From: Candidatus Woesearchaeota archaeon | GTDB taxonomy: Archaea; Nanobdellota; Nanobdellia; Woesearchaeales; 0-14-0-80-44-23 | NCBI GenBank assembly: GCA_038874135.1 | Contig: JAVZCZ010000001.1 | Coordinates: 751,219 to 815,218 of the forward strand | DNA: 64,000 nt | Reading direction: 5' to 3' | In this document: in pieces, positions 1 to 52,245 of the stretch | Numbering within the stretch: the stretch's first letter is position 1 | Layout: each line of letters starts with the position of its first letter | Notes under the pieces: model-generated | What the model was told of the DNA's origin: nothing | The model's database searches: none | What the model saw: the letters and a program-made list of their open reading frames with translations, nothing else | Program-made: the position numbers and the translations under genes

Positions 1-3000
1 TGCTCATACTCTTCTAACTACTTGGAAGTGCAGTGCTCAGATGAGCAAGCCTATGGCAATGCCTCTACATATTTTTACATATTTGAACTTCCATCCGTGA
101 ATACTTACGAACCGAACGATTCTGCAATAATAAACTCTTCCTCATTCCAATTTGAATATGAAATTCTGCCAGAATCGTCAGCATACTTAGTTAAAAACTG
201 CGCCCTTATATTAGATGGAACTTCCTGTAACTCTACTGATTTACCTCACAATGGAACAAACAGCATAAGCTGCCCGTTCAGTGAAGGATCTCACACTTGG
301 AAGGTGCTCTGCACACTCATAGGCTCAGGCCAGGAAACTATTGAAAGTCAAGAAAGAGGATTCTTTGCAGATTATAGTCCTCCAAATATAAACCTAATTA
401 ATCCAAACCAGCCCGCTTACAATTCAGATGTTCCCATTGAATTTAACATTACAGACTCTGCCTCTTCATCATTCAATTGCACAATATCCGGCATTCCAGC
501 ACCATTCAATCTCAGCTCACTTGTTTCCTACTCTTCTAAGCTTAACCTTCCAGTAGGAAAATATAATCTAACGATTTCCTGCTCAGATGCTGCTGGAAAT
601 TCTGCATATACTTGGCAAGAATTTGAACGAATAAATCTTTCAGTTTCAACTGACAAAAAATATTATATTCCTATGGAAAATGTGTTTATAACGCTGAACG
701 CTCCTCCTTCCCAAACAAATATCTCAGTTTCAAAAGGCAATTTCACACTGTCCAAAACAACAACTCCACCATATCCAATAGTCTACATCTTCACATCCTC
801 AAACGAGCCTGGAGATTACCTGGTGCAGGCATTTACAACATATAACAACATAACATTCACTGCCAACACCTCATTCTCAGTCAATATAACTAGAAACCTT
901 ACACTTTCAATATCAGCTAACACCACAACAGCTGAGCCCGGAGTAAGAATCCTATTCTATTCTAATGTTTCAGGAAACCTCACTCCTGTTACATACTTGT
1001 GGGACTTTAATAATGATAACCTTCCCGAAAGCAGCCTTCCAAATACCGAATACTCTTTCTCACAGCCTGGAAGATACCTCGTAACTTTAAAAGTGAACGA
1101 CTCATATTCCTCCGCCTCAGCTTCAATAAATATAACAGTGCTCTCCAGAGCAAATTTGAGCATTACAGTTCTTAACAGGCTTGGAGAACCTCTCGCTGGA
1201 GCAAACATCACGCTAGGCAACACATCTGCCATAACCAACTCCTCTGGAGCAGCAGTCATGCAGAATCTGCTTCAAGGCACATACCCTATAAATGTAACAG
1301 CCACAAATTACAATTCGTATTTCAACACAGTGGACATTTCCTCTAACAAAAACATAACAATATATCTACAAGAGCTCACAGAAGAGCCGGAAATCCTAAT
1401 AACAGAACCAACAGATGGTGCTACAATAACATCCCTTCCAATTACAATAAGGTTCAAAGCAAATTTATCATATCCTACAAACTGCACACTATACAAAAAT
1501 GAACAACAATCCTGGTGGGAACAGCTTTCTCAGATGGCTGTTACAAACAACACTGAAAATACCTTGTCAGTAGCCAATCTCACGGACGGGCAAGTTCTTC
1601 TAAGAATCGTATGCACAGATGTATTCGGAAACAGTGGCACCCAACAGATTTCCCTTAACATCAGCACACTACCAAAAGAGCCGCAATATCCAGAACTAGA
1701 CCAGGCAGAAGAAGAGCTCTACACAAAACAGGAATACTACAACAGCATAGGACCAGCACAGCTTGAAGCAGCTCAACTATTAGGTATACCTGATATGCTC
1801 TCAGATGCTCAGAACCGATTAACACTCGCCAGGAGGGATCTCTCAGACCTCTCATATTCAAAAAAGAGCCCGGAGGAAAAAGAAGCAAGAAAGAGTGAAA
1901 TAATATCTGACGCCGTTTCACGAATCAATGCAATTCCAGATTCAATACAGGTGCTATCTTCTTATGAACAGATACACTATCCAACTCAGCAAGAGCTGGA
2001 AAAGGTGGCAGCTCCCTTCATCTCAGCTAATTCTCTGAAGATAGACCAGCGGACATTCCTAAGAGCAAACTCTCCACTTATTGAGCTAATAACAATAAAT
2101 ACAAAAGCGTTTTCAATAGTGCTAAATTATAACGGGGAGAGCCGAGAAGTGTCTGTAATAAAGCACTCTGTACAGCTCAGCCAACAGCTTAACGAATCAG
2201 CAATCTCAAACCTGATGTTAATACTCAATATTCCAAAACAGATAGCTGACTCAGCAGCAGGAATCACATTTATGGACAGGTATGGACAAAAAGTAGTCAA
2301 AGATGATCCAATCTTTTCACTTCCTGTTACAAGCGAAATAGTTTACCAAATAAACAAGAGCATTGATGCAAATTCTGCTTCTGAGATATCACTCCTCTTA
2401 GTAAGCAAGAGTGCTTCAGTTTCAATACCAGGCATATCGGGACTGGCAGTTTCACAGACAAGGTATTCCATCTGGCCTTTCAATCTCATTGGAGGAAAAA
2501 TTGGCTCCAGTTTAGCTATTCAAATAGTAATACTTGTAGTGCTTCTTACCATATACTTAGTATACACCCTTCAGCCGGAAATAATAAGCAGATCAGCAGA
2601 TGCACTAGGAAATCATATCAAAAATCTCAGACCTCGCTCGGAAAATAGGATGAAGCAAATAGTCCATGCTGAGAAGTCAATTCCCACAACACTACAGAAC
2701 AATTTAGCTAGCATGCCGCAGCAACAAACATACTCACCCATTCAACAACAAGTAGTTCCCATAGGGCCTGGAATGCAGCATTCTTACATTGCTTACAGAA
2801 TGCAACGGGCTCTTCAGTTGGCAGAGCAGAACAACTATGAGGAAGCTTCAGCCGCATATTATGAATTAAAATTCCTTTATAACACGCTCAGCTCTCACGA
2901 AAAATCCCTACTTTATCCGCAATTATTAAACCTGGGACACAAGCTTAACATTTCCTATATCAGACAGTTAGTTTCAGAAGCAAAGTTAAAGGTTAATTCA

Positions 3001-3222
3001 GACTACCAAGAAGCCCTTGAACTTTATGATAAGATCTCCAAGGCATACTCACTGCTCCCTACAGAGTTCAAGTATGCAGTGTTCTCTGAATGTCTTGAGC
3101 TTCTAAACATTCTTGAAAGGGCAAGAAAAAACCAGAACAACTCTGAAAATCAAGCAGTAACCTTCAAAAAGAAAAAAAAGAGGTGCAGGTCAAAATCACA
3201 CGCCAAGGCGAGAAGGGCATAA
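1..3222 (+). CDS. 5'-partial bitopic surface glycoprotein: Ig-like/beta-sandwich ectodomain with many N-x-S/T sequons, one TM helix (LAIQIVILVVLLTIYLVYTL), Gln-rich/TPR-like cytoplasmic tail
   Basis: The frame is open from window base 1; the track's TTG 'start' at 22 is not a real start. It has NCxL..G...W.V.C.D repeats of the same family as the giant proteins downstream, a single hydrophobic helix near aa 835, and then no sequons. Its stop overlaps the next gene. Confidence 0.8.
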   Translation, partial: CSYSSNYLEVQCSDEQAYGNASTYFYIFELPSVNTYEPNDSAIINSSSFQFEYEILPESSAYLVKNCALILDGTSCNSTDLPHNGTNSISCPFSEGSHTWKVLCTLIGSGQETIESQERGFFADYSPPNINLINPNQPAYNSDVPIEFNITDSASSSFNCTISGIPAPFNLSSLVSYSSKLNLPVGKYNLTISCSDAAGNSAYTWQEFERINLSVSTDKKYYIPMENVFITLNAPPSQTNISVSKGNFTLSKTTTPPYPIVYIFTSSNEPGDYLVQAFTTYNNITFTANTSFSVNITRNLTLSISANTTTAEPGVRILFYSNVSGNLTPVTYLWDFNNDNLPESSLPNTEYSFSQPGRYLVTLKVNDSYSSASASINITVLSRANLSITVLNRLGEPLAGANITLGNTSAITNSSGAAVMQNLLQGTYPINVTATNYNSYFNTVDISSNKNITIYLQELTEEPEILITEPTDGATITSLPITIRFKANLSYPTNCTLYKNEQQSWWEQLSQMAVTNNTENTLSVANLTDGQVLLRIVCTDVFGNSGTQQISLNISTLPKEPQYPELDQAEEELYTKQEYYNSIGPAQLEAAQLLGIPDMLSDAQNRLTLARRDLSDLSYSKKSPEEKEARKSEIISDAVSRINAIPDSIQVLSSYEQIHYPTQQELEKVAAPFISANSLKIDQRTFLRANSPLIELITINTKAFSIVLNYNGESREVSVIKHSVQLSQQLNESAISNLMLILNIPKQIADSAAGITFMDRYGQKVVKDDPIFSLPVTSEIVYQINKSIDANSASEISLLLVSKSASVSIPGISGLAVSQTRYSIWPFNLIGGKIGSSLAIQIVILVVLLTIYLVYTLQPEIISRSADALGNHIKNLRPRSENRMKQIVHAEKSIPTTLQNNLASMPQQQTYSPIQQQVVPIGPGMQHSYIAYRMQRALQLAEQNNYEEASAAYYELKFLYNTLSSHEKSLLYPQLLNLGHKLNISYIRQLVSEAKLKVNSDYQEALELYDKISKAYSLLPTEFKYAVFSECLELLNILERARKNQNNSENQAVTFKKKKKRCRSKSHAKARRA

Positions 3223-5564
3223 TTTGTGCTCTGCTTTTAGGAATTGTAACTATAATCTTAGGTAGTTATGCCTGCGCTTTGGAATTTTCACCATCTTCAA
3301 TTAACGAAGTGCTTTCTATTAACAAGTTTGTTCAGAAAAACATAACTTTGAAGAATGAACTCTCCTATCCGGTAAGGATTGCTCTGGTGCCCTCTTCTAA
3401 CATTAGCGATTTATTAGACATCACTCCAAATTCTATTGAAATCGGGGCAAGAGAGTCAAAGAATGTTCTGGTTACAATATACGGAAATGTTGATCCTATA
3501 AAATTTATTAATCGCTCGTATTACATCTTTAATGGCTTCATAAAGCTTGAAGGAGCTAACGCTCAAATACCTACGGACTTGATGGTCACTAATGGAACAA
3601 TAAACCTGCCCAGCAGCATGGTGCTTTCAGCATCGGCAGGTAAGGATTATTTCACTAAATCAGAAAATCTCTCTTTTATAATTGTTGTAACGAATCTTAT
3701 GACAGGCTCAAAACCAAATGTTACTCTTTTCTATTATTTCCTAATTGATAAAAACTCAGAAATTCCCGTTGGGAACGATTCCTTCATAATTACTACTTCA
3801 AAATCAGTTGTAAAGGAATTCATACCAATGTCTTCAATACCTGATGGCACCTATACTTTCAGGGTTGTAATGTCTTATGCAGATAAGAAGAGTGTTGCTG
3901 ATGTGCCCTTCAGGATATCAACCCCATTTATATTCAGAACATTCTTAGGTATAGCTGTATGGCAGTATATACTCGGAGTGATTGCCTTAATAATAATTGG
4001 CTTGTTAGTATACTGGCGAAGGAAGCGTGTTTTGGCTTCTCGTCGTTATGGTGTGAGTGTGGATTTGCGTAGTTTTCCTTCTTCTGGTAGGCTTGTGCGT
4101 TTGGGTAAGTTGGCGGAGTATGGGCGTGATTTTTGGTTTGATTTGGATGGTTTGACTACGCATTGTATTGTGGCTGGTGCTACTGGTGGTGGTAAGACTG
4201 TTGCTGCTCAGGTTTTGGTGGAGGAGGCTTTGAAGGCTGGTGTGGCTGTGGTTGTTTTTGATCCTACGGCTCAGTGGAGTGGTTTTTTGAGGCCTTGTTC
4301 TGATAAGGGTATGTTGTCTTTGTATTCGGGTTTTGGGTTGCGTCGTTCTGATGCTCGGGGTTTTCCGGGTAATGTGAGGCAGGTGTTGGATGCTCGTGAG
4401 GTTTTTGATGTTAGGCGTTTTATGCGTCCTGGTGAGATTGAGATTTTGAGTTTGAATAGGTTGAGGCCTGAGGAGATTGATGTTTTTGTGGCTAATACTG
4501 TTAGGAGCGTGTTTGATGCGGGTTTGGATGAGTGTCGTGAGTTGAGGTTGTTGTTGGTTTATGATGAGGTGCATAGGTTGTTGCCGCGTTTTGGCGGTTC
4601 TGGTGAGGGTTTTGTGCAGATTGAGAGGGCTTGTCGTGAGTTTAGGAAGTGGGGTGTTGGTGTTGTTTTGATTAGTCAGGTTTTGTCTGATTTTGTTGGT
4701 GAGATTAAGGCTAATATTAATACTGAGGTTCAGATGAGGACTCGTGATGAGGGCGATTTGGAGCGTATTCGTGTTAAGTATGGTGATGCTTATCTTAGGG
4801 GTCTTGTGAGGGCTAGTGTGGGTACTGGTATGTTTGAGAATCCCGGTTATAATGGTGGTCGTCCTTTTTTTGTTAGTTTTAGGCCTTTGTTGCATAGTGT
4901 GGTTCGTTTGTCTGATGCCGAGTTGGGTGAGTATAATAGGTTGAATGGGGTGTTGGATGATTTGGAGTTTTGGATTGGCGAGTTGGAGCGTTTGGGTGTG
5001 GACGTGTTTGATTTGAGGTTGGAGTTGAAGTTGGCTTGGGATAAGTTGAGGGTTGGGGGGTTTGGGATGGTGGATGTTTATGTTGAGGGTTTGAGGCCTC
5101 GCGTGTTGGGCGAGTTTGAGCGTTTGGGGAGGCCTGTTCCTAAGCGTGAGGTTAAACGCCTTTCAGATGAGGAGCTTGCAAAGCAGAGGAAGCTGGCTGA
5201 GCAGAGCCGTGCAGAGTTTATAAAAAAGATGGGCATTAAAGAGCAGCAGTCCAAGCAGGAGGAAAAGAAGGAAGAACACATCGTGCAGCCTTACACTTTT
5301 GATAATGGTGCAATGGTTTCGGAGCTTAAGGAGTTGAAAGACGCTATAGAACCTATGAGTGCTGACATCCTCAGAAGCGCGTTGAGTGGAAACAATAAGC
5401 TTTCTGATTGGATAAAGAATGAGCTTAAGAATGAGCAGCTTGCCTCTGAAATTGAGAAGGCGAAGACGAAAAAGGAGATTCTTGATGCAATAACTGCTGA
5501 ACTTGATAAAGCAGAAAAGAGCAGTGAGAAATCTGGAACTGATAAAGGCCAAAAGTCTAAGTAG
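3183..5564 (+). CDS. Receptor-ATPase 1: signal/anchor, ~250-aa glycosylated ectodomain (two beta-sandwich domains), TM helix, cytoplasmic HerA/FtsK-superfamily (DUF87-like) P-loop ATPase, C-terminal adaptor domain
   Basis: GTG start with K/R n-region then a hydrophobic stretch. Sequons occur only before the TM helix (GIAVWQYILGVIALIIIGLLVYW). Walker A is AGATGGGKT, Walker B is LLLVYDEVHRL, and VVLISQ is a sensor-like block. The C-terminal ~65 aa match the HVNFERND-type domain of ORFs 26656..27150 and 35335..37869. Confidence 0.85.
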   Translation: MQVKITRQGEKGIICALLLGIVTIILGSYACALEFSPSSINEVLSINKFVQKNITLKNELSYPVRIALVPSSNISDLLDITPNSIEIGARESKNVLVTIYGNVDPIKFINRSYYIFNGFIKLEGANAQIPTDLMVTNGTINLPSSMVLSASAGKDYFTKSENLSFIIVVTNLMTGSKPNVTLFYYFLIDKNSEIPVGNDSFIITTSKSVVKEFIPMSSIPDGTYTFRVVMSYADKKSVADVPFRISTPFIFRTFLGIAVWQYILGVIALIIIGLLVYWRRKRVLASRRYGVSVDLRSFPSSGRLVRLGKLAEYGRDFWFDLDGLTTHCIVAGATGGGKTVAAQVLVEEALKAGVAVVVFDPTAQWSGFLRPCSDKGMLSLYSGFGLRRSDARGFPGNVRQVLDAREVFDVRRFMRPGEIEILSLNRLRPEEIDVFVANTVRSVFDAGLDECRELRLLLVYDEVHRLLPRFGGSGEGFVQIERACREFRKWGVGVVLISQVLSDFVGEIKANINTEVQMRTRDEGDLERIRVKYGDAYLRGLVRASVGTGMFENPGYNGGRPFFVSFRPLLHSVVRLSDAELGEYNRLNGVLDDLEFWIGELERLGVDVFDLRLELKLAWDKLRVGGFGMVDVYVEGLRPRVLGEFERLGRPVPKREVKRLSDEELAKQRKLAEQSRAEFIKKMGIKEQQSKQEEKKEEHIVQPYTFDNGAMVSELKELKDAIEPMSADILRSALSGNNKLSDWIKNELKNEQLASEIEKAKTKKEILDAITAELDKAEKSSEKSGTDKGQKSK
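4021..5176 (+). repeat. Copy 1 of an exactly duplicated 1156-bp cassette encoding the complete cytoplasmic HerA/FtsK-like ATPase module
   Basis: It is identical to 8201-9356 at a constant offset of 4180. The embedded antisense ORFs 4005..4895 and 8191..9075 translate identically. Identity begins immediately after the TM helix codons and ends at ...KRLSDEEL. Confidence 0.9.
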
Positions 5565-5740
5565 ATTTCTTATACCTTAACCAACAATGTGGTATTTATA
5601 AACTTAGATTACTTAGTATGCATTTATACACATACACTATTTGTGTCACATTTAAAAATTAGTATATAAAATGAAAATATTTATATATCAATATACATAT
5701 TTAGTATGAGTTTGTATTCAAAGACCTTGAAAAGGCTTTT
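5565..5740 (+). promoter_or_regulatory. AT-rich intergenic promoter/operator region upstream of the RHH pair
   Basis: A TATA-like AAAATTAGTATATAAA lies near 5655-5670. TTAGTATG/TAGTATA motifs recur three times (about 5620, 5655, 5701). This is the only sizeable non-coding gap inside the 26-kb gene string. Confidence 0.45.
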
Positions 5741-5752
5741 TTGGGACCCGAA

Positions 5753-5941
5753 ATGCGCAGTACGCCTGAGAAGCATGGCTCAAAGAGAATAACCATAACC
5801 ATAAGCAAGGACCTTTTAGACTTCTTAGATTTAGCTGTGGAGAACAGGCTGTTCGCAAGCAGAAGTCATGCACTTGAAGTCTTAGTAAGGCGCAGGATGG
5901 AGTTTGAGAATGAAGCAAAGAATTACAATTACATTGGATAG
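5753..5941 (+). CDS. Ribbon-helix-helix (CopG/Arc/MetJ-like) DNA-binding protein; alternative TTG start at 5741
   Basis: KRITITISKDLLDFLDLAVENRLFASRSHALEVLVRR is a beta-strand of alternating hydrophobics followed by two helices, the classic RHH layout. An AT-rich promoter-like region lies upstream. Confidence 0.65.
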   Translation: MRSTPEKHGSKRITITISKDLLDFLDLAVENRLFASRSHALEVLVRRRMEFENEAKNYNYIG

Positions 5942-6101
5942 TGAATGCCTGGCATGGGTTGATGAAAAGGTAAAGAATAGAAGCTTTGCTAATCGGAGCC
6001 ACGGCTTTGAATTTTTAATAGCGCGATTCAAGGAGCGCCAAGAACTTCAGAATCTTCTCAACTCGCGAAATTCAAAGGAGGAAGACTTAAAACATGAATA
6101 A
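5910..6101 (+). CDS. Second ribbon-helix-helix protein, tandem paralog of the previous one; ATG at 5910 preferred over the track's TTG at 5904
   Basis: QRITITLDSECLAWVDEKVKNRSFANRSHGFEFLIARF matches the RHH pattern. It overlaps the upstream RHH gene by ~32 nt, and its stop overlaps the ATG of the downstream ATPase gene (ATGAATAA). Confidence 0.65.
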   Translation: MKQRITITLDSECLAWVDEKVKNRSFANRSHGFEFLIARFKERQELQNLLNSRNSKEEDLKHE

Positions 6102-9100
6102 AAATCCTACCTTCAGGATACTGGAACGGGACAGGCAGCTGGAAAGGAGAAGACAGCAGCTGTACATCCTATTAGGCATCTTAGGAGTTTTACTAGCAGT
6201 TGGTGTTATACTTCTGATAAGAATGTTCATAGGATACGCAGTTCTGGAAAGCAGGGCTGGCACAATAACACAACTTAATATACAGCTCAGATACTCAACA
6301 CACATATGGGCTGGATTTTACGGATTGGCATTCCGCGTTCCCGGATACACTGAGCAGCAGTCTGCAGTTGCAGTCGGCGGCACAGTCTTCTTGCAGCACT
6401 TAGTATTTGACTGCTTAAAAACTACAGACGGCAACATTCCTGAGGTATATGCCAGTACTTCAAGAAACATTGACTGGAATTCACTCCAGCCAGCAACTCC
6501 AGACTTGATTGACAGCTACCTACAAGTAGATCCTTCAGATATAACCTCTGCTTCAAACACATTTACAGAAACAATGTCAATACTCTTAGGAGACAGAGAA
6601 ATCACAAATATTGCTGCAACGCACACCAAAAAGTTCGGAGTTCCGGACAGCACGGACTTTGATATAGGCTTCTTAAAAGATTCGTTGGGAAATCTCGTAT
6701 TTGTAACCCATGTAACTCCAACTTATACCAAAGGATTTAACAACCAAACTATAAACTACCAAATGCTCCTTCCAGTACAAGCAGGAACAGCTCCAGTATA
6801 CTACTTCTTCTCAGACCCATATGACGAGTGCCAAGCAGGGCTTGAAGCTCTCAAAAATGCTACCATATTCGGAAGAGCCATAGACAATGCAACAGGCCTT
6901 CCACTTGAAAATGTTACAGTTAATCTTCATACTGCTACAGTTCTTACCAACTCTACAGGAGACTATTACATAGCAATATTTAACGGCACCTACACCCTAG
7001 TAGCTTTCAAGCCGGGATATTACACCTTTGTTGCAACAAACATCACTCTCCCAGCTGACAATCTGTCTACACCTCAATCTGAAAATATTGTCGAATTTAA
7101 TATATCCCTCATTCCCAACCCTGGAAACCCAACTGGACTCGGAAACCTAACTGGCACTGTAACTGATAAAGACTTCGGAATACCCCTCTATAATGTAACA
7201 GTGTATGTAAACGGCAGAATCGCTAAGACAAACATTACAGGCCAATACCTACTTGAACTGCCAGCAGGAAATCATTCTCTTATAGCAATGAAGGAAAACT
7301 ACAGAACATACTACACTCCAAATGTAACTATACTGCCTGGAAACACCACTGAATTTAATTTCAGTATGGAATATGCAGAGCCAGAAATAAAAGAAACTCC
7401 TGGATATCCGCTAAATACCTTCGTTTCCAACCTACTCAAACAGGCAGTGCAGAGGCCTCAAATAATACTCACTCATAAGATTGATACAAAAGAGATATTT
7501 GAAACATTAAAAGTTGGCTCATATGTCCAGCGCTCATTCAATATAACGAGTTACAGGCCTGCCGAGTCCAAAGTTGAGTTTGAAGTCATAGGAAGTGCTG
7601 CACAGCTGGTAAAGGTTGACAAGAGCAGCTCAATAATACCTCCAAGGGGTGCAGAAAACTTCACCCTTACAATTCTAGCCAATGTGCCTCCAGGCATATA
7701 TACCGGAACATTCCTAATCAAAGGAGACCTTGAAGACAGAATCCCGATAAAGATAGTTGTTTATGAGAAGGATAGACTTCCAATAGAGGCTCTTCTCCTA
7801 GAAGTAGTGCCAATAAAAAAGATAATCAGCCCAGGAGAACTATTTGAATATAAGGTCAGCATGACAAACCTGCTGAGGGACACCCCATACAACATCACCC
7901 TTTCATACAATATCACCTCGCGCTCTTCAAATCTTACTATTCCCGTTGAAGAAGAGACGAGACTCTTGGAAACTCAGCTTTCCTACCTTAAGTATTACAA
8001 GCTTCCCAAAGACCTGCCAGAAGGAGAATACTTCCTTGAAACTAGAGCGGAATTCTTAGAACTATCAACAAACACAAAATCGCTATTCATAGTTAAGAAG
8101 CCAATTTACATGTATGCATTATTCGGAATACTTCCCCTCTGGCAGCTTTTCATAATAATAGTTTTCACCTCCCTCATGACCTTCGCAGGATTAATGTATC
8201 GGAAGCGTGTTTTGGCTTCTCGTCGTTATGGTGTGAGTGTGGATTTGCGTAGTTTTCCTTCTTCTGGTAGGCTTGTGCGTTTGGGTAAGTTGGCGGAGTA
8301 TGGGCGTGATTTTTGGTTTGATTTGGATGGTTTGACTACGCATTGTATTGTGGCTGGTGCTACTGGTGGTGGTAAGACTGTTGCTGCTCAGGTTTTGGTG
8401 GAGGAGGCTTTGAAGGCTGGTGTGGCTGTGGTTGTTTTTGATCCTACGGCTCAGTGGAGTGGTTTTTTGAGGCCTTGTTCTGATAAGGGTATGTTGTCTT
8501 TGTATTCGGGTTTTGGGTTGCGTCGTTCTGATGCTCGGGGTTTTCCGGGTAATGTGAGGCAGGTGTTGGATGCTCGTGAGGTTTTTGATGTTAGGCGTTT
8601 TATGCGTCCTGGTGAGATTGAGATTTTGAGTTTGAATAGGTTGAGGCCTGAGGAGATTGATGTTTTTGTGGCTAATACTGTTAGGAGCGTGTTTGATGCG
8701 GGTTTGGATGAGTGTCGTGAGTTGAGGTTGTTGTTGGTTTATGATGAGGTGCATAGGTTGTTGCCGCGTTTTGGCGGTTCTGGTGAGGGTTTTGTGCAGA
8801 TTGAGAGGGCTTGTCGTGAGTTTAGGAAGTGGGGTGTTGGTGTTGTTTTGATTAGTCAGGTTTTGTCTGATTTTGTTGGTGAGATTAAGGCTAATATTAA
8901 TACTGAGGTTCAGATGAGGACTCGTGATGAGGGCGATTTGGAGCGTATTCGTGTTAAGTATGGTGATGCTTATCTTAGGGGTCTTGTGAGGGCTAGTGTG
9001 GGTACTGGTATGTTTGAGAATCCCGGTTATAATGGTGGTCGTCCTTTTTTTGTTAGTTTTAGGCCTTTGTTGCATAGTGTGGTTCGTTTGTCTGATGCCG

Positions 9101-9636
9101 AGTTGGGTGAGTATAATAGGTTGAATGGGGTGTTGGATGATTTGGAGTTTTGGATTGGCGAGTTGGAGCGTTTGGGTGTGGACGTGTTTGATTTGAGGTT
9201 GGAGTTGAAGTTGGCTTGGGATAAGTTGAGGGTTGGGGGGTTTGGGATGGTGGATGTTTATGTTGAGGGTTTGAGGCCTCGCGTGTTGGGCGAGTTTGAG
9301 CGTTTGGGGAGGCCTGTTCCTAAGCGTGAGGTTAAACGCCTTTCAGATGAGGAGCTGCAGAAGGAAAAGGAGATTGCTATGCAGGAACATGAGAAAGCAA
9401 AACAGCAGGAAGCAGGACAAACTTCACAAAATTCAGATTCCAAGACAGAAACTTCCCAAATTCAAAACACAAAAGTTGAAGAGCAGCCCAGCCAAAATGA
9501 AAAGGCCGAGAACCAAGAGAATGCAAAATCCTCAAATGAAAATAAAATTAAAAGAGTAAGGGAGGGTAAAAAGCAGAGGATGAGGAAATCAGCAAGTTCG
9601 GAAAAAAATAATAAAAAAAGAGGTGCTAAAAAATGA
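6094..9636 (+). CDS. Receptor-ATPase 2: N-terminal signal-anchor, ~640-aa glycosylated ectodomain (two carboxypeptidase-regulatory-like domains plus two membrane-proximal beta-sandwich domains), TM helix, cytoplasmic HerA/FtsK-like ATPase identical to that of ATPase 1, K/E/Q-rich low-complexity tail
   Basis: RRRQQLYILLGILGVLLAVGVILLI is the anchor. GRAIDNATGLPLENVTVNLHTATVLTNSTGDYYIAIFNGTYTLVAFKPGYY and a second similar unit are CarboxypepD_reg-like. The second TM helix is LFIIIVFTSLMTFAGLMY. Nucleotides 8201-9356 are identical to 4021-5176. Confidence 0.85.
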   Translation: MNKNPTFRILERDRQLERRRQQLYILLGILGVLLAVGVILLIRMFIGYAVLESRAGTITQLNIQLRYSTHIWAGFYGLAFRVPGYTEQQSAVAVGGTVFLQHLVFDCLKTTDGNIPEVYASTSRNIDWNSLQPATPDLIDSYLQVDPSDITSASNTFTETMSILLGDREITNIAATHTKKFGVPDSTDFDIGFLKDSLGNLVFVTHVTPTYTKGFNNQTINYQMLLPVQAGTAPVYYFFSDPYDECQAGLEALKNATIFGRAIDNATGLPLENVTVNLHTATVLTNSTGDYYIAIFNGTYTLVAFKPGYYTFVATNITLPADNLSTPQSENIVEFNISLIPNPGNPTGLGNLTGTVTDKDFGIPLYNVTVYVNGRIAKTNITGQYLLELPAGNHSLIAMKENYRTYYTPNVTILPGNTTEFNFSMEYAEPEIKETPGYPLNTFVSNLLKQAVQRPQIILTHKIDTKEIFETLKVGSYVQRSFNITSYRPAESKVEFEVIGSAAQLVKVDKSSSIIPPRGAENFTLTILANVPPGIYTGTFLIKGDLEDRIPIKIVVYEKDRLPIEALLLEVVPIKKIISPGELFEYKVSMTNLLRDTPYNITLSYNITSRSSNLTIPVEEETRLLETQLSYLKYYKLPKDLPEGEYFLETRAEFLELSTNTKSLFIVKKPIYMYALFGILPLWQLFIIIVFTSLMTFAGLMYRKRVLASRRYGVSVDLRSFPSSGRLVRLGKLAEYGRDFWFDLDGLTTHCIVAGATGGGKTVAAQVLVEEALKAGVAVVVFDPTAQWSGFLRPCSDKGMLSLYSGFGLRRSDARGFPGNVRQVLDAREVFDVRRFMRPGEIEILSLNRLRPEEIDVFVANTVRSVFDAGLDECRELRLLLVYDEVHRLLPRFGGSGEGFVQIERACREFRKWGVGVVLISQVLSDFVGEIKANINTEVQMRTRDEGDLERIRVKYGDAYLRGLVRASVGTGMFENPGYNGGRPFFVSFRPLLHSVVRLSDAELGEYNRLNGVLDDLEFWIGELERLGVDVFDLRLELKLAWDKLRVGGFGMVDVYVEGLRPRVLGEFERLGRPVPKREVKRLSDEELQKEKEIAMQEHEKAKQQEAGQTSQNSDSKTETSQIQNTKVEEQPSQNEKAENQENAKSSNENKIKRVREGKKQRMRKSASSEKNNKKRGAKK
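8201..9356 (+). repeat. Copy 2 of the 1156-bp ATPase cassette
   Basis: See copy 1; it is a direct repeat in the same orientation. Confidence 0.9.
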
Positions 9637-10457
9637 AGTCAAAAAAATCAGTTAAGTATAGAGCGAGAGTTCACAATAAGGCTAACTCAAGCAAGAAAGA
9701 TTTGAGAAAAAAGAAGGTTCGCATTGAGAGAAAAAATAGCACTAAAACAATTAGTAAAGAAACATCACCTAAAAAATCCAAAGCTTACTTAAAAAAGCGA
9801 TTTGGCAAGATTGATAACAGAGTTATTAAAAATAAAAATAATAAAGTAAAACCAGGAGCTTTAAAGCACAGAAAAAAAGAGAAGAAGCAGAATGTTCAAA
9901 AAAGAAGAAAAGCAATGCAAAAAAAGCCAGCGCCTGAAAACGCAGCCGCAGCAACCAACCAAGTACAGACAAATACGACTTCAACAGCTCAGCAGGCAAA
10001 TTCTCAAATTGAAACACATTCAGATGTGGAAGCGCTTCAAAAAGAATACTCAGATATCAACAGCTATCTGGTTCAGCGAAGAAAAGCGGGAGTTGACACC
10101 TTCATACAGGAACTGAAACTTTTTTCAATACCGTCAAAAATTCAGCTTTTAAAGGCAGAATACTCAAAAGATTATGCTGACAAGATTAGAGTTCAACTTA
10201 ATGAGATTAGAGAAGAGTTAGAAAAAGCAGAACCTCAACCGACCCCCCTTGACCTTCCTAAAGTTCAGCCGAACCAGCCGAATCCATTCTCAGAGCAACA
10301 GCTCACAAGTCAGAATAATAATCATCCCTTAACGCAGGATGCAGAAAACTATTCAAAAGAACTAGCTGAGAAGCGCCTTTCAAATAAAATAAAAAATTCT
10401 CTGAGAAATGCTTCCAAAAAAGTTATGTCCATATTCAAAAAAGGAGGTGGAAATTAG
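9633..10457 (+). CDS. Lysine-rich basic protein (histone H1-like low-complexity N-terminal half) with C-terminal coiled-coil region
   Basis: Its ATG overlaps the upstream stop (ATGA). The N-terminal ~100 aa are about 35% K/R (KKSVKYRARVHNK...KKEKKQNVQKRRKAMQKK). The C-terminal part has heptad-like periodicity. Internal alternative-frame ORFs (9296..9559, 9892..10116) are artefacts of the A-rich sequence. Confidence 0.6.
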   Translation: MKSKKSVKYRARVHNKANSSKKDLRKKKVRIERKNSTKTISKETSPKKSKAYLKKRFGKIDNRVIKNKNNKVKPGALKHRKKEKKQNVQKRRKAMQKKPAPENAAAATNQVQTNTTSTAQQANSQIETHSDVEALQKEYSDINSYLVQRRKAGVDTFIQELKLFSIPSKIQLLKAEYSKDYADKIRVQLNEIREELEKAEPQPTPLDLPKVQPNQPNPFSEQQLTSQNNNHPLTQDAENYSKELAEKRLSNKIKNSLRNASKKVMSIFKKGGGN

Positions 10458-11615
10458 ATGTTCAACCTTTTCAAACGGAAAAACTCTGAAGAAGTTCCCA
10501 ATCAACAATCAGCTAACGAAGATCTGACAGCTCCAGCACAAACCCAGCAAACTGCTACTACGCAAGGACAGGAAAACCTCGCTGCAGAATTAATGAAGAT
10601 TAAGGCAGAAGTGGAAGCATTTTCAGATGTAAGAAAAGCCACAAATGAGAAACTTACAAGACTAAGCGAGCAGATTGGAGAGCTAAGAGCAATGATTGCA
10701 GACAGAGACAAGGTGATGAATCAGATAGAGGTTAAAGCTACAAAGGCAGCAGATCTCGTAGCCACAGTTAAGCCTGAAGAGCAGATGGTAGAAATAAAGC
10801 GTCAGGATGCAAAACTTGAAGCGTTTAAAGCATCTCTGGAGAGCAATGAACTTTTGATGAAGAGAGTTTTAGACGAACTTAAAGAGATGAGAACAAAGAT
10901 AGCTTCCTTCCGCGGAATTGAGGAACTAATCAACCTTAACAATGAAGTAAAATCTGAAATAATTGAAATAAAAAAGGTTGAAGCAAACATACAAAAGCAT
11001 GCAGACAAGGTAGAAACGATATTTGCAGAGGTTCAGAAAAGATTCGTTGACTTTACAAAAATTGATGATAGGATAGCATCCAACACGAAGCAAATAGCAG
11101 AGCTATCAAAGAACTTGGACGGAGTGAAGGCAACTGCCTCGGCAGCAGCCACAAAAAAGAGTGTAGATGAACTAACTTCCAAATTCTTAGAAATGAAAGA
11201 CCAACTCTCAGAACTGGTTTCAACAATAAACAAGCGCCTCTCCTTAGTGGAGAAGAACAATTCTGCAGCATTTGAAGCTTTTGAAAAAGCGATAATGCAC
11301 AAGTTTAAACTTTCAAAAGAGGAAGTAGCTGTATTTAAAGAGCAAGTACAGCAGAATCAGCAAGCCCAGCCAACTCAGCAAATATCCCAGCCGCAGGATG
11401 TCTCTCAAAAGAGCAATACTCAAGAGCAAAATCTTCAGACCAGTGAAGCACCCGAAGCTCTACCACAGCCGCAAGCCTCTCAGCAGGTTCAGCAGCCGCA
11501 GAGTGAGCCAAATGAGCAAGACTCAAAAAAGCCTGACAGCAGCATTCAGAAAGAGATAAGAGAAGCAGCCAAGTTTGCTAAAAGGATAAAAAGCAAAAAA
11601 AGAAAGAAGAAATGA
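10458..11615 (+). CDS. Long coiled-coil protein with Gln-rich ends and K-rich C-terminus (scaffold/filament-like)
   Basis: It starts directly after the upstream stop. The central ~250 aa have a continuous heptad pattern (ELMKIKAEVEAFSDVRKATNEKLTRLSEQIGELRAMIADRDKV...). It has no TM segment. Confidence 0.65.
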   Translation: MFNLFKRKNSEEVPNQQSANEDLTAPAQTQQTATTQGQENLAAELMKIKAEVEAFSDVRKATNEKLTRLSEQIGELRAMIADRDKVMNQIEVKATKAADLVATVKPEEQMVEIKRQDAKLEAFKASLESNELLMKRVLDELKEMRTKIASFRGIEELINLNNEVKSEIIEIKKVEANIQKHADKVETIFAEVQKRFVDFTKIDDRIASNTKQIAELSKNLDGVKATASAAATKKSVDELTSKFLEMKDQLSELVSTINKRLSLVEKNNSAAFEAFEKAIMHKFKLSKEEVAVFKEQVQQNQQAQPTQQISQPQDVSQKSNTQEQNLQTSEAPEALPQPQASQQVQQPQSEPNEQDSKKPDSSIQKEIREAAKFAKRIKSKKRKKK

Positions 11616-35338: not shown

Positions 35339-37869
35339 TTTATTCCGTTCAATATTTTCAGCATTTCTTCCTTATTTCTTGCTTTTCTTAATCTTGCCGC
35401 TAAATTCCTATCCCTAATCTCGTCCCTTATCCAATCTGCAAGATCGTTCCTTTCAAAATTGACATGGTAGTTGAAAGTGTCAGAGTCGGCATATTTAATC
35501 TCCCTTTTGAGTTCTTCTATACTTCTAACAACTCTCCCATTGTAAAGATGCAGGGGATTTATTTTAAGTCCGCATTCACTTTTGGGCTGATTTGAGCTTT
35601 TCAATTCTTTTTCTTCTCCACTCTTAACTTGGCTTCTTATTTCTTCTAACCTTTTTATTCTACTTCTCAACTCTTCAGCTTCCTCTGGAGAAAGATCTCT
35701 TGGATCTATGCTTTTTAACTCTTCAAGCACAGAATCAACATTCTGTACATCTTCTTTTTCTTCCAGCAAGCCTTCTTCTCCGCTGAATTCATCTTCATAA
35801 AAAGTTTCCTTTCCCATTCTGAAATAATAAAATGCAAGAGCCGTCACAATAAAAACACCCATCACTATTCCAACATATTTTGAACTGCTTCTTAAAGTTT
35901 CAAAAACAGAATATCCGCTTATATTGTTTTTTTCATAAGTCGGCTTTTTAAGTAGGACTGATTTTATACTTCCCAAATCGCTTTCTGATACTTTAGAGTT
36001 TACTACGAACTTGATAACATTTTCTTTTCCATTTGTGGGGAAGCCTATTATAGGGTCACTTTGGATTATTGTGTAGCCCTTGCTTATGAAGCGAAGTTTA
36101 GATACATCTTCTGCAATGTTTTTCGGAATCAGCATTACAATTGAGGAGTTGTTTTCTTCCTTATCTAAAATGAGTTTATCTTCAATAAATGTGATATGCT
36201 CAGTGGAGCCCTCATATATTATGCTTACAAGCCTTCCGGAAATCAACTGCTTAACTCCTTCCTGTTCAGAGCTGACCTTCTTTATATAGTCTAAGTCTCC
36301 AGAATTTTGCGGGTAAGTCTTTGAAATGGCAGACACCACATCTTCGTTGTTTGCCCTTACTTCAACTTCTGAGTAGTTCGTTAATTCTAAACTTAGAGGA
36401 ACAGCACTTAGCAGCGATCTTAATGCTATCTTCTGCCTTGAAACCTCAGAAAGTATGTCTTCATCTTTTGAAGTGCTCGTTCTTAACCCTTTCAATTCTG
36501 AGATTACTCCTTCAAGTCTCATCAATGAGTTTTGCGCCTCTTCTAATAAGCCGGTTGCATCCAGAATTTCTGAAGGGATTTCTTGCATTTTTTGGATTCT
36601 CTTCTGAATTTCCACCTTAGCAGCTTCTGCAGAGCTTATCGCTTCGCCTATACTCCTTATTGTTTGCGGGGAAAGTTCAGAATCAACATCACTTTTAACA
36701 GCTATCGCACTTACCTCATTAGAAAGCCCGCCTTCATTTCCAGCCAGGTCAACTGCTGATACTGCGTAGTAATATGTTTTTCCTTCCGCTACATTTCTAT
36801 CAACATAATATGTTTCACTAGTCTTATCGTAGTAATCCAGATAGCTTACTCCAGTTGAAGAGCTTCTATATATTCTAAATTCTGATATGTTATCCCCTTC
36901 AAATCTTATACTTAAATTTATCTTACCATCTTTTTGAGATGAAGCGCTTAGGATTGGCGCTTCAGGTGCTACTGTATCTATTATGAAAAGTTTTCCAGAA
37001 GTTATTAGGTCCCCACTTGTGCCATAGTAATCAGTACCCCTGAATGAAAAAGAGCCTATCTTGTTTCCCATACCCTTATCAATTATGAGATACCCGCGCC
37101 AAACCCTTCCAGAACCGACTAGGTCTATACTTTTTATGTTATCATCCACCTTATATGTTAATATTGGCGTTGGTACTAATTCAGTTGAAGCTGTTAGAGT
37201 AACCTCATACAGCCCATCCTTCAATGGTGGATTTTTTGAGAGCGAAATCTGAGCATAGACTGGACTTCTCACATAAAAGTTTATAACTTGTTCAACCTTG
37301 TTTCCAACAGAATCAAAACATCTTATCAGGTATGACTTTGGGCCTTGAGATAGTCCTGAGAGGATAGTTTGATGGCTGAAACCATCTGCACTTTCCAGTT
37401 GCCTTTTTACTCCTGAAGATTCGTAGGAACAGTTAGCCCTTTCATTAGTCGCAACGAACATCATAACATAATCTGTGCTTATTGAGCCAGAAGGCCCGCT
37501 TCCCACTATTAAGGGGGGTGTAGTGTCTACTGTAAAATTAATTAGAATCGGAGTGCTGCTCTCATTGTTTAAGTTGGTGCAGACGGCATAGAATTCATAG
37601 TAATCGTCTTCCAAGCTTAGGTTCAGCCAGTGTTCTGTGTCGTTACCCTGCATAAGATTTTCCATCTGTGAATATGTAACATTGTTTTCTGATATTCTGC
37701 AGAGAGCACTCTCGTTTGTTATTGTGAGAAGATTAACATTTTTATTATTGGTGTCTGCTGTTGGTGCATATGCAACTATCTTTGGAGCGGCAAGAGTGGA
37801 TGTTGCACACGCTATTGTGATAATCAGGATTATTATGTTCTCCTTCCACGAGATGTGATAATTTTTCAT
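35335..37869 (-). CDS. 844-aa bitopic surface receptor: signal peptide, Ig/FN3-like ectodomain, TM helix, cytoplasmic coiled-coil plus C-terminal HVNFERND-type adaptor domain
   Basis: The signal peptide is MKNYHISWKENIIILIITIACATSTLAAP. The TM helix is YVGIVMGVFIVTALAFYYF. The C-terminus LHLYNGRVVRSIEELKREIKYADSDTFNYHVNFERNDLADWIRDEIRDRNLAARL matches gene 26656..27150. Confidence 0.8.
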   Translation of the reverse strand: MKNYHISWKENIIILIITIACATSTLAAPKIVAYAPTADTNNKNVNLLTITNESALCRISENNVTYSQMENLMQGNDTEHWLNLSLEDDYYEFYAVCTNLNNESSTPILINFTVDTTPPLIVGSGPSGSISTDYVMMFVATNERANCSYESSGVKRQLESADGFSHQTILSGLSQGPKSYLIRCFDSVGNKVEQVINFYVRSPVYAQISLSKNPPLKDGLYEVTLTASTELVPTPILTYKVDDNIKSIDLVGSGRVWRGYLIIDKGMGNKIGSFSFRGTDYYGTSGDLITSGKLFIIDTVAPEAPILSASSQKDGKINLSIRFEGDNISEFRIYRSSSTGVSYLDYYDKTSETYYVDRNVAEGKTYYYAVSAVDLAGNEGGLSNEVSAIAVKSDVDSELSPQTIRSIGEAISSAEAAKVEIQKRIQKMQEIPSEILDATGLLEEAQNSLMRLEGVISELKGLRTSTSKDEDILSEVSRQKIALRSLLSAVPLSLELTNYSEVEVRANNEDVVSAISKTYPQNSGDLDYIKKVSSEQEGVKQLISGRLVSIIYEGSTEHITFIEDKLILDKEENNSSIVMLIPKNIAEDVSKLRFISKGYTIIQSDPIIGFPTNGKENVIKFVVNSKVSESDLGSIKSVLLKKPTYEKNNISGYSVFETLRSSSKYVGIVMGVFIVTALAFYYFRMGKETFYEDEFSGEEGLLEEKEDVQNVDSVLEELKSIDPRDLSPEEAEELRSRIKRLEEIRSQVKSGEEKELKSSNQPKSECGLKINPLHLYNGRVVRSIEELKREIKYADSDTFNYHVNFERNDLADWIRDEIRDRNLAARLRKARNKEEMLKILNGIK

Positions 37870-37870
37870 G

Positions 37871-38026
37871 TTAAAGCTTTATCTTTGAGACAAGGTTGTT
37901 GTCTCTTTTTACTGCCTCTTCAATTGCCTTTTGCAGGTATTCTTTTAGGGTTGTGTTCTTGAGAAAGGCGATGACCTTAGCTTTTGTGTGCAGGTCCTCG
38001 CTTAGGTCTAGATTTATCTTTTTCAT
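37871..38026 (-). CDS. Unannotated 51-aa ribbon-helix-helix protein at the head of the minus-strand receptor operon
   Basis: Reverse-strand translation gives MKKINLDLSEDLHTKAKVIAFLKNTTLKEYLQKAIEEAVKRDNNLVSKIKL. This is a beta-strand (KINLDL) plus two helices, as in CopG/Arc. It lies 1 nt upstream of the 844-aa gene's ATG, with an AT-rich promoter-like region upstream (38027-38191). It is absent from the ORF track because it is under 60 aa. Confidence 0.6.
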   Translation of the reverse strand: MKKINLDLSEDLHTKAKVIAFLKNTTLKEYLQKAIEEAVKRDNNLVSKIKL

Positions 38027-38191
38027 TTTCAGCCGCTCCTCGGAAATTCCCGAATTACTTTAATTACTTCAATTGTTAAAAGAATTTAAATAGTTTTCTA
38101 TATTAAAATTATAAAAGTTATAAAAATTATTTAACTAATCTTAACAACTTAAACTATAAAAATAATATATATAAGAATTGAAAATGGTTTT
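38027..38191 (-). promoter_or_regulatory. AT-rich promoter region for the minus-strand RHH-receptor operon
   Basis: It is ~85% A+T with several TATA-like runs, and lies immediately upstream of the 51-aa RHH ORF. Confidence 0.4.
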
Positions 38192-52138: not shown

Positions 52139-52245
52139 GCCTCTGTAGCTCAGTGGTAGAGCGCCACCTTGGTATATTCCGCAGTCAACCCAGGCTTGGA
52201 ATTGCAGAAAGGTGGAGGTCGCGAGTTCAATCCTCGCCAGAGGCT
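52139..52245 (+). tRNA. Intron-containing tRNA, most likely tRNA-Thr (anticodon GGU), with a ~35-nt intron at the canonical 37/38 position (about 52175-52209)
   Basis: The acceptor is GCCTCTG/CAGAGGC and the D-arm is GCTC-AGTGGTA-GAGC. The anticodon stem is 5' CCACC with loop TTGGTA, interrupted before the 3' stem GGTGG. The T-arm is GCGAG-TTCAATC-CTCGC. A TATA-like GTTTTAAAAACA lies ~28 nt upstream. The isotype call depends on the intron placement. Confidence 0.65.

Follow-up and report, generated by a model that had tools for sequence, protein, structure and literature searches.

What does the surface-protein region at positions 1-39928 of a 64,000-nucleotide stretch of Candidatus Woesearchaeota DNA (referred to as the window) encode, and does it represent a system that has not been described before? 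The region carries two paralogous genes, B and D, for P-loop ATPases joined through a single transmembrane (TM) helix to an extracellular domain, together with genes for giant immunoglobulin-like (Ig-like) repeat proteins and putative ribbon-helix-helix (RHH) regulators (genes are lettered A to R; Table 1). The original prediction had put it forward as a candidate for an undescribed apparatus of cell-cell attachment and macromolecule transfer, an interpretation that our results support in part. On balance, we consider it probable that the region is the Woesearchaeal form of a SPEARE-type receptor-ATPase envelope apparatus of DPANN archaea. Its core belongs to the known SPEARE family, here in a split form with two paralogs that is new, and the conserved gene neighbourhood around it is defined for the first time. 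The most surprising result is that the ATPase genes, and a pair of surface-protein genes, contain identical cassettes of extreme base composition.

To characterize the two receptor-ATPases, we analyzed their domain content, topology and predicted fold. Hydropathy and sequon counts gave the same order of parts for B and D: an N-terminal hydrophobic segment, an ectodomain, one TM helix and the ATPase part. Pfam matched DUF87 and HerA_C in both. The N-X-S/T sequons were confined to the ectodomains (7 in 218 aa for B, 21 in 631 aa for D), with none in the 518 and 489 residues of the corresponding ATPase parts. An AlphaFold model of B, based on 50 homologues, reached a predicted local distance difference test score (pLDDT) of 83.8 and displayed two Ig-like sandwiches, the TM helix, a RecA-like core, a helical bundle, a long helix and a small C-terminal helical domain. 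As had been expected of it, the ATPase module modelled with the RecA-like core fold of the HerA/VirB4/FtsK class. Its Walker A and Walker B sequences are GATGGGKT and LLVYDEVH, respectively; residues G332, T334, G335, G337, K338, D461 and E462 were invariant in the alignment of the 50 homologues, and a motif following Walker B, likewise invariant in the family, aligns with HerA (4d2i). The model and the motifs point to a HerA/VirB4-clade P-loop ATPase with a RecA-like core, and Pfam, topology and model all agree with the earlier notion of such a motor attached through one TM helix to a sequon-rich, Ig-like ectodomain.

The module stands apart from the curated members of this class. Every curated model, those for HerA, CedD, TraD and TraC in NCBIfam included, scored far under its cut-off on the ATPase (25-35 bits against 800-970 for the HerA equivalog models, 32 bits against 600 for CedD), and Pfam FtsK_SpoIIIE yielded 20.5 bits against a threshold of 24. 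In B the TM helix extends to residue 285 and the P-loop begins at residue 332, so that a HAS-barrel is lacking; the same ~45 residues leave no space for the VirB4-type N-terminal domain PF03135, for which Pfam gave no match. A gamma-type DNA-recognition domain was not found, the tail domain matching OrfY. Laminin-G was not detected by Pfam in A, B, D, G or H at E ≤ 0.01.

This layout closely resembles that of the SPEARE proteins. Hamm et al. 2019 described SPEARE as a long extracytoplasmic adhesion part with a TM helix close to the C-terminus, behind which lies a conserved intracellular domain. They noted relatives of the intracellular domain in Woesearchaeota and other DPANN archaea, listed SPEARE versions of 655 and 717 aa, and found by proteomics that a SPEARE protein is made in the cultured symbiont (PMC6642349). 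In Reva et al. 2023 the proteins are reinterpreted as comprising a Sec signal, a giant Ig ectodomain, a TM helix, a VirB4/TraG-like ATPase and a coiled coil, and host binding and secretion are proposed for them (PMC10266531). Two of the loci that we sampled provide a direct connection: the ATPases of loci L041 and L070 are KYK27349.1 and OIO61381.1, which both appear in Table S3 of PMC6642349 among the SPEARE-domain relatives used in the published phylogeny, and both are homologous to window B (E 8e-176 and 3e-170, respectively). This identifies the window ATPases as short-ectodomain members of a described family. Judged by sequence, B and D belong to the SPEARE cytoplasmic-domain family, the link running through the shared accessions and, for the nanohaloarchaeal SPEARE, through the published description; the claim that the system is undescribed does not hold for its ATPases (PMC6642349, PMC10266531). 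A further candidate for a shared protein, RLG14629.1 (Hamm 2019) as our P0051, was rejected since the accessions differ.

The features in common are a signal, an Ig-like adhesion ectodomain, one TM helix, a cytoplasmic P-loop ATPase and a C-terminal helical or coiled-coil part; the helical part after the ATPase (578-647 and 662-694 in the model) fits the C-terminal coiled coil of SPEARE in Reva 2023. Like the 717-aa form from Lake Tyrrell (ectodomain 1-322, TM 323-345, P-loop 374-616; PMC6642349), B and D are mostly extracytoplasmic, with one TM helix and a cytoplasmic C-terminal region. Short (655 and 717 aa) and giant forms exist side by side in the family, Woesearchaeal members reaching 6,253 aa. 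In contrast to the giant SPEARE, B and D measure only 793 and 1180 aa, their ectodomains are short (~250 and ~630 aa), the giant Ig proteins are separate genes, and the two paralogs share identical ATPase cassettes; no laminin-G, protease-like or toxin-like regions were detected in the window. What is new is the set of partners, namely a PKD bitopic protein, an OrfY/DUF5752-like adaptor, a coiled-coil protein, giant Ig proteins and RHH pairs, and, probably, the division into two tandem RHH-headed operons. Such partners are undescribed for SPEARE loci in the literature of Hamm 2019 and Reva 2023, and the system is unmentioned in the YN1 attachment-organelle paper, Castelle 2021, Huang 2021, Meheust 2022 and the Nanobdellota complete-genome preprint.

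To determine how widely the gene set is conserved, we combined a protein search, which gave at least 896 matches, with a scan of species-representative genomes, which gave at least 550 loci. From the latter, 79 loci were fetched, their open reading frames (ORFs) called and then searched with every window protein. All named matches among the at least 896 came from Woesearchaeota, Pacearchaeota or Nanoarchaeota (DPANN). The family falls into size classes of ~800 and ~1300 aa, and its ATPase module forms 361 clusters at 50% identity (E ≤ 1e-30). A same-strand, A-like ORF of at least 700 aa abuts the ATPase upstream in 35 of 40 long-type loci; a homologue of F lies within 2.5 kb downstream of the long ATPase in 34 of 39, and G/H-like genes occur within 9 kb in 18 of 28 long-type loci. 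Among the 18 loci with only a short ATPase, ten carry R-like genes within 9 kb and eight are adjoined by the P, N, L, M, J and K families. The paralogous ATPase pair represented by B and D recurs in nine of 79 other loci. The same gene order was found in independent assemblies from NCBI, ENA and JGI, and since synteny is kept in other genomes, the arrangement is not a matter of chance. Nearly every gene of 1-39928 belongs to a family that travels with the ATPase; R is counted in because it co-occurs with the ATPase gene set, although it lies just outside 1-38191. Collectively, these data demonstrate co-conservation of the gene set across dozens of genomes from Woesearchaeota, Pacearchaeota and Nanoarchaeota, as the original prediction had anticipated.

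The ectodomains of the family extend from ~250 to more than 5,600 aa. Giant fusions of 1,800-6,253 aa make up 55 of the 142 listed representatives (24 of 1,800-3,000 aa, and 31 above 3,000 aa with a maximum of 6,253 aa), and the ATPase is located at the C-terminus in all of them. The ten giants that we inspected (1,970-6,253 aa) are all sequon-rich; a TM helix right before the ATPase was seen in seven and an N-terminal signal or anchor in six, and P0214, P0147 and P0134 had no pre-ATPase TM at the threshold used. The two giant fusions carrying a name are from Woesearchaeota.

The most prominent feature of the nucleotide sequence is found within the ATPase modules. Parts of B and D are identical to each other, and so are a tract in H and one in M (Table 1). 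These two pairs are the only long repeats in the window, and the four stretches are also the only strongly G+T-rich ones in the 64 kb. On the sense strand the ATPase cassette has a composition of A.15, C.10, G.37 and T.38, and its third codon positions hold 157 G, 215 T, 10 C and 2 A (97% G or T; z=6.1 against the rest of the window). The corresponding counts for the H/M tract are 41 G, 173 T, 4 C and 0 A (third-position G+T 0.982, z=6.3), compared with 0.48 ± 0.08 and a maximum of 0.68 elsewhere in the window. The composition switches within a codon, exactly where the identity of the copies begins and ends. Synonymous choice follows the directions C to T and A to G (Leu, TTG 43 versus CTT 4; Glu, GAG 31 versus GAA 0; Asp, GAT 24 versus GAC 1), and the protein is shifted likewise, with R/(K+R) of 0.79 versus a family mean of 0.40 and V/(I+V) of 0.82 versus 0.52.

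Opposite the four stretches, open antisense frames of 274-310 aa are present on the minus strand (4005-4895, 8191-9075, 19867-20799 and 30460-31284), with low-complexity translations rich in T, N, K, P and Q. They are open because A is lacking at the sense third positions, and they are probably not genes.

Relatives of the window show how the skew behaves over time. In the nearest one (L083, ENA), the two modules share a 1066-nt identical core with a third-position G+T of 0.99; a metagenome-assembled genome (MAG) from Kamchatka (L001) has 1246-nt repeats whose core is identical and skewed, and the module of L004 is skewed as well. In six other genomes with both paralogs, the modules are 58-79% identical and unskewed. 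Comparison of four-fold degenerate sites between L001 and L004 revealed identity at 22 of 54 in the ectodomain, compared with T in both at 157 of 158 in the module. With the ectodomain saturated and the module held at T, the bias must have been maintained over time, which rules out a one-off recent transfer as the origin of the skew.

The earlier idea of swappable ectodomains gains substance from these cassettes, which carry different ectodomains on an identical module, and from the size range of the family ectodomains. The assembly L084 (GCA_049969735.1) equals L001 minus 4455 bp (L001 12082-16536), the two being otherwise 99.9% alike, and L084 is thereby exactly what recombination between the two modules would produce, a hybrid of the B ectodomain and the D tail. 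Either a genuine recombination event or the collapse of a loop during assembly accounts for L084. The hybrid layout of L084 is also that of L004, at 84% identity.

With respect to the source of the skew, we infer that gene conversion between the copies is frequent and that the sense strand, exposed in a homology-bounded D-loop or heteroduplex, collects deamination-type changes; selection on DNA or RNA composition is a possible alternative. Transcription-associated mutation or an RNA/cDNA intermediate is disfavoured as the sole cause: in the same gene and transcript, no skew is seen in the ectodomain portion until the repeat begins, and a transcription-linked or cDNA route therefore fits poorly. 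Three further candidates were rejected. A diversity-generating retroelement is at odds with copies that are identical even at A sites, and the window showed no reverse transcriptase; a viral donor of the skewed module found no relatives in IMG/VR; and the + strand, the sense strand of both tracts, has no three-tetrad G-quadruplex motif. As a separate observation, another Woesearchaeota MAG contains, at L081 4386-5246, a gene for a 286-aa membrane protein with G/T-only third positions (A.06, C.02). This tract has no second copy in the 17-kb locus, and the bias is thus perhaps not strictly repeat-bound.

Parallels exist in concerted evolution by gene conversion (Neisseria pilE/pilS), in fungal repeat-induced point mutation and in the leading-strand G+T skew of bacteria. 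The cassettes share with these the identity of repeats within a genome, a mutation-like bias confined to repeats and the direction expected of deamination in single-stranded DNA (C to T, A to G). Repeat-induced point mutation destroys its targets, however, and pilS cassettes diversify, whereas both window copies stay functional and identical; the window bias differs in addition by being strand-specific, by saturating synonymous sites and by being bounded to the codon by the limits of homology. We found no description of such a cassette bias in archaea in the literature. It is a possible but rather doubtful extension of these findings that the locus represents an uncharacterised DPANN-wide machine with exchangeable ectodomains whose ATPase and surface-protein cassettes undergo a homology-bounded, strand-specific, recombination-coupled and deamination-like mutation.

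Starting from the observed architecture and topology, ATPase fold class, family membership, partner co-conservation, chromosomal location and cassette identity, we propose a model for the SPEARE-type apparatus. B and D would be type-I membrane proteins in which Ig-like, probably N-glycosylated ectodomains are connected by one TM helix to the cytoplasmic ATPase, and A would be their PKD-domain bitopic partner. Cytoplasmic connections would be made by the OrfY/DUF5752-like domain that B, P and I carry, by the adaptor E and by F, a coiled-coil protein associated with the membrane. G and H would be Sec-exported giant Ig-repeat proteins, which in other lineages are fused straight to the ATPase. To our knowledge, all structurally known relatives of the ATPase form rings. 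By analogy, the ATPases may assemble into a hexameric ring under the membrane, placing six TM helices and six ectodomains around its axis. The ectodomains and giant Ig proteins would bind a partner cell or surface, and ATP hydrolysis would drive a polymer, either protein or DNA, through the complex or along it, or would pull surface fibres. Homologous recombination or gene conversion would keep the ATPase modules identical, and the same process could swap ectodomains and tails. Ring assembly, glycosylation, the contacts between components, contact with a host and the nature and direction of any cargo all belong to the model, and macromolecule transfer is proposed by analogy with the ATPase superfamily. 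On account of the ATPase fold class, the adhesin fusions, the neighbouring giant Ig proteins and the published host-contact context, we favour a ring mechanically coupled to surface-binding fibres.

Several observations weigh against the model. Laminin-G, said to occur in all SPEARE ectodomains (PMC6642349), was undetected in B and D, and the separate VirB4 gene with PF03135 that lies next downstream of nanohaloarchaeal SPEARE genes (PMC10266531) is absent from the window. Pfam, hydropathy and NCBIfam scans revealed no polytopic channel, pilin, relaxase or nuclease in the locus. G and H carry ordinary N-terminal signals, so that no dedicated exporter is needed for them. The L084 hybrid is possibly an assembly loop collapse. 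Finally, the lysine-rich proteins that hint at DNA are not conserved.

Comparison with other membrane-anchored ATPases of this class places the locus apart from them. The Ced/Ted systems for DNA import in Crenarchaeota (CedB/CedD with CedA and CedA1; PMC11868833, PMC9905601) are likewise built on two paralogous, TM-anchored HerA/VirB4-clade ATPases and act in a context of cell-to-cell contact. Unlike them, the window locus has neither a VirB6/CedA-type polytopic channel of 5-7 TM helices nor a VirB2/CedA1-type pilin: none of the proteins from 1-39928 contains more than two hydrophobic segments, the only polytopic neighbour being an unrelated amino-acid permease upstream, and the small ORFs inspected (at least 30-50 aa) are RHH-like or TM-free. 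The window ATPases further lack the VirB4-like cytoplasmic N-domain, and their large extracellular domain has no counterpart in CedB/CedD. With HerA-NurA they share the Walker motifs and the motif REx(R/G)RKxGV...SQ; they differ in being membrane-anchored, in lacking a HAS-barrel and in their neighbours, as NurA, Mre11 and Rad50 were not found in the window. EssC/EccC of type VII secretion and FtsK/SpoIIIE, which belong to the same superfamily, are ring ATPases anchored in a membrane, across which they transport protein or DNA. The window proteins instead have one ATPase domain rather than three, a single TM helix and an N-terminus outside the cell, and no WXG100-type substrates were recognised.

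That no channel, pilin or nuclease was found in the locus would equally suit a structural envelope system, in which the ATPases build, anchor or remodel a giant-Ig surface layer without any intercellular transfer, as in surface-protein assembly or quality control. All extracellular parts are built from Ig-like, PKD, CARDB or CarboxypepD_reg modules of the kind usual in archaeal surface proteins; R carries a domain resembling ArlF, a stator protein that binds the envelope; the membrane-targeting-like ends of F homologues suggest a sub-membrane scaffold; and the set is near-universal in these orders, as one would expect of a housekeeping function. We nevertheless regard this alternative as unlikely, because ring ATPases of the clade are known as translocases of DNA or protein and not as assembly scaffolds, because the extreme variation of the ectodomains in size and content fits partner recognition more than a lattice, and because the SPEARE literature ties the family, as a hypothesis only, to host interaction (PMC6642349, PMC10266531).

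The lysine-rich proteins bear on a second alternative, an FtsK-like pump in which a membrane-anchored HerA-clade ATPase, with coiled-coil and basic proteins, clears or segregates DNA at division. The lysine-rich features turned out to be specific to the window lineage, and the basic tails are not kept in homologues. The label 'H1-like' given to one of these proteins reflects composition only, and the DNA-binding argument drawn from them is accordingly weak, in a locus without nuclease, relaxase, pilin or polytopic channel. Many F homologues (including those of L026, L031, L043, L059 and L071) end in a KKGFFSKLFGKK-type amphipathic sequence resembling membrane-targeting sequences, which suggests that F is situated on the inner face of the membrane. 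Together with the lack of conservation, these ends raise the possibility that the basic ends of the window proteins may bind membrane rather than DNA. Despite the HerA/FtsK superfamily fold, a weak SMC-type coiled-coil match of F, the presence of basic proteins and tails in the window genome and the wide conservation of the family, a chromosome pump therefore appears very unlikely: a gamma-type DNA-recognition domain was not found, and neither ectodomains as large as 5,600 aa nor the proximity of giant secreted adhesin-like genes would be explained by such a pump.

An anti-virus defence system or surface-exclusion sensor on a HerA-type ATPase is less probable still. Although PADLOC mad8 (E 1e-15) and a number of HerA models from defence systems hit the ATPase core, the match is limited to this generic core and no other protein of the locus matches a PADLOC model; SIR2, NurA, DUF4297 and Dnd partners were not found, and the chromosomal synteny is kept across orders, unlike that of patchy defence islands. 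That a mobile element or an assembly chimera formed around the repeats is scarcely credible, for all that the exact 1.16-kb and 0.66-kb repeats have a deviant composition and the L001/L084 difference could be an assembler artefact, as the gene order is repeated in the independent assemblies, the flanks are housekeeping (topoisomerase, L10e, aIF5B, tRNAs), neither integrase nor reverse transcriptase was detected in the window, no relatives were found in IMG/VR and an assembler cannot invent two copies with different flanks.

The organization of the locus was analyzed by recomputing the ORF map and the junction table, which matched the earlier coordinates; gene order, domain content and topology also agreed with the earlier description, as determined from the ORF map, Pfam, hydropathy and sequons. 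A and B overlap by 40 nt (3183/3222) and C2 and D by 8 nt (6094/6101); D/E, F/G and G/H overlap by 4 nt each, and E and F abut with 0 nt between them. The proposal that all of this forms one polycistron is doubtful. The AT-rich gap between B and C1 contains a TATA-like box, TATTTATATAT, at 5678-5688, and may provide an internal promoter for a second unit; the archaeal TATA consensus is the basis for this role. Gap and box make two tandem units likelier than one polycistron, probably the RHH-headed [RHH RHH A B] and [RHH RHH D E F G H], which would be followed by satellite units formed by I, J, K-N, Q-P-O and R. The box of 5678-5688 recurs at 27330-27340 upstream of J, where a perfect 9-nt inverted repeat, TTGGTATAC...GTATACCAA, is also located (27380-27412).

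Gene A is truncated by the window edge, its frame being open from base 1. In the public record (L082), the full gene begins 297 nt before the window and encodes a protein of 1172 aa that has a signal peptide; it is preceded by two overlapping RHH genes and, further upstream, by a divergent amino-acid permease. Past the permease, L082 1-1427 contains more Ig-type surface genes (HYDIN/VesB-like Ig, NPCBM_assoc and FixG_C matches), and the surface-protein island thus reaches beyond the window start. The promoter region of this RHH-headed operon, outside the window, holds two exact copies of TTGTCATACA (L082 3121-3130 and 3185-3194), 64 nt apart and ~50 and ~115 nt upstream of the first RHH gene, as a candidate operator. 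As an operator motif shared by the whole locus, TTGTCATACA was rejected, its count there being not above chance. The rest of the window encodes topoisomerase I, ribosomal protein L10e, aIF5B, a NOG1-type GTPase and tRNAs, and ORF D is 100% identical to the NCBI protein of a Candidatus Woesearchaeota MAG (P0004). The housekeeping genes indicate that the locus is chromosomal, in a genome of less than 1 Mb, in line with the small-genome archaeon that had been assumed. At 52139-52245 (+), a 107-nt tRNA was called by Rfam and not by ARAGORN; it is probably an intron-containing archaeal tRNA.

Table 1. Features of the locus in window coordinates; domain and topology assignments are predictions.
Feature	Position	Strand	Description
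A	1-3222	+	Type-I bitopic protein; 3' 1073 codons of a 1172-aa gene
B	3183-5564	+	Short receptor-ATPase, 793 aa; signal/anchor; two Ig-like beta-sandwiches 33-246; TM helix 259-285; HerA/VirB4-clade ATPase ~300-570; helical bundle 578-647; long helix 662-694; OrfY/DUF5752-like C-terminal domain ~704-784
ATPase cassette, copy 1	4021-5176	+	1156 nt; 100% identical to 8201-9356
Intergenic gap	5565-5740	+	176 nt, AT-rich, between B and C1
C1, C2	5741-6101	+	Overlapping RHH-like pair; C1 5741-5941, C2 5904-6101
D	6094-9636	+	Long receptor-ATPase, 1180 aa; signal/anchor; 630-aa ectodomain with two CarboxypepD_reg; TM helix 673-691; ATPase module as in B; lysine-rich tail
ATPase cassette, copy 2	8201-9356	+	
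E	9633-10457	+	Cytoplasmic; lysine-rich N-terminal half; C-terminal motif RKxGxD...P.KI
F	10458-11615	+	385-aa cytoplasmic coiled-coil protein; basic/amphipathic C-terminus
G	11612-18652	+	2346-aa secreted Ig-repeat protein; Big_7, Big_13, CARDB; 132 sequons
H	18649-26487	+	2612-aa secreted Ig-repeat/CARDB protein; internal 50-aa repeat region
Second tract, copy 1	19969-20624	+	656 nt, in H; 100% identical to 30550-31205
I	26656-27150	+	164-aa soluble protein; OrfY/DUF5752-like domain in C-terminal 70 aa
J-N	27454-33636	+	Secreted/anchored paralog set
J	27454-28224	+	
67-aa ORF	28295-28498	+	MERIPALNPRYTKVVWQETPQ...; overlaps K start by ATGA
K	28495-29187	+	
L	29195-30112	+	
M	30160-32418	+	Mosaic of H-like repeats and L-like C-terminus
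Second tract, copy 2	30550-31205	+	In M
N	32446-33636	+	C-terminal TM
Q-P-O	33680-38026	-	Opposite-strand unit
O	33680-35338	-	Bitopic
P	35335-37869	-	Bitopic; cytoplasmic tail ending in OrfY/DUF5752-like domain
Q	37871-38026	-	RHH-like
R	38192-39928	-	578-aa type-I surface protein; ArlF-like beta-sandwich

The partner proteins provide further detail on the neighbourhood. A consists of a PKD and CarboxypepD_reg ectodomain (Pfam), a TM helix spanning ORF residues 829-847 and, on the cytoplasmic side, a helical tail of 219 aa, whose supposed TPR-like character finds no backing beyond sub-threshold TPR scores (E 0.1-0.7). Giant secreted Ig-repeat proteins and RHH genes do lie beside the motor, as had been proposed. 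G and H each begin with a signal and lack a TM helix or anchor at the C-terminus; Big_7, Big_13 and CARDB were found by Pfam in both. As to the putative RHH regulators, the first gene of the pair that heads A (L082:3236-3412) passes Pfam RHH_1 with 24.1 versus 20.5 bits, and this pair is homologous to C1 and C2. For the RHH-like genes of the window itself the matches are weaker: C1 and C2 match the NikR N-terminal (RHH) model of NCBIfam under the family cut-offs (E 2e-6 and 6e-5), and Q gives a weak ParD match (E 0.008).

Several cytoplasmic parts appear to be related to one another. The motif of E is that of an adaptor gene located behind the ATPase in relatives, where the N-terminal half is DUF5752-like; window E keeps the motif only, behind its lysine-rich half. 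E as a copy of the ATPase helical bundle was rejected (not significant, E 0.37). Over its last 70 residues, I is similar to the cytoplasmic end of P (E 3e-17) and to the tail of B (E 0.002), and the I-type adaptor domain was modelled at a pLDDT of ~90. The domain on B, P and I probably has an OrfY/DUF5752-like fold. This shared domain ties the opposite-strand, RHH-headed unit Q-P-O, whose existence the present map bears out, to the ATPase cluster. We found no papers on OrfY or DUF5752, and PDB sequence searches gave no significant match for I and F. R matches NCBIfam ArlF below threshold (E 6e-5). Within the paralog set, the N-terminal half of M repeats the 50-aa units of H and holds the identical tract, and its C-terminal 280 aa are 40% identical to L (E 1e-60). 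The 67-aa ORF is GC-richer than its surroundings, looks unannotated and has no Pfam match.

The cassettes, for their part, are a clear-cut natural example of concerted evolution that goes together with a strand-specific bias. If the proposed mutation process acts on them, it would keep the paralogs identical, saturate their synonymous sites with G and T and enable the swapping of ectodomains, and would represent the archaeal equivalent of a mutation process that targets repeats or of a programmed recombination of cassettes. Should the bias be mutational, it would serve as a readout of recombination and of the repair of deaminated bases in reduced archaeal genomes; if it is selected, it would point to an unknown constraint at the level of DNA or RNA.

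For the attachment of DPANN archaea to their hosts and the uptake of material from them, SPEARE is among the few named candidates, discussed so far mainly as single giant genes of Nanohaloarchaeota. Our analysis adds the same ATPase family in at least 550 loci of species-representative genomes, the credibly named loci and proteins of our sample all being from Woesearchaeota, Pacearchaeota or Nanoarchaeota. It also adds a defined partner set, consisting of a PKD bitopic protein, an OrfY-like adaptor common to several receptor tails and a putatively membrane-associated coiled-coil protein, as well as giant adhesins that are either fused to the ATPase or encoded beside it. Taken together, these components provide a concrete parts list for structural and genetic work in cultivable nanohaloarchaeal systems.

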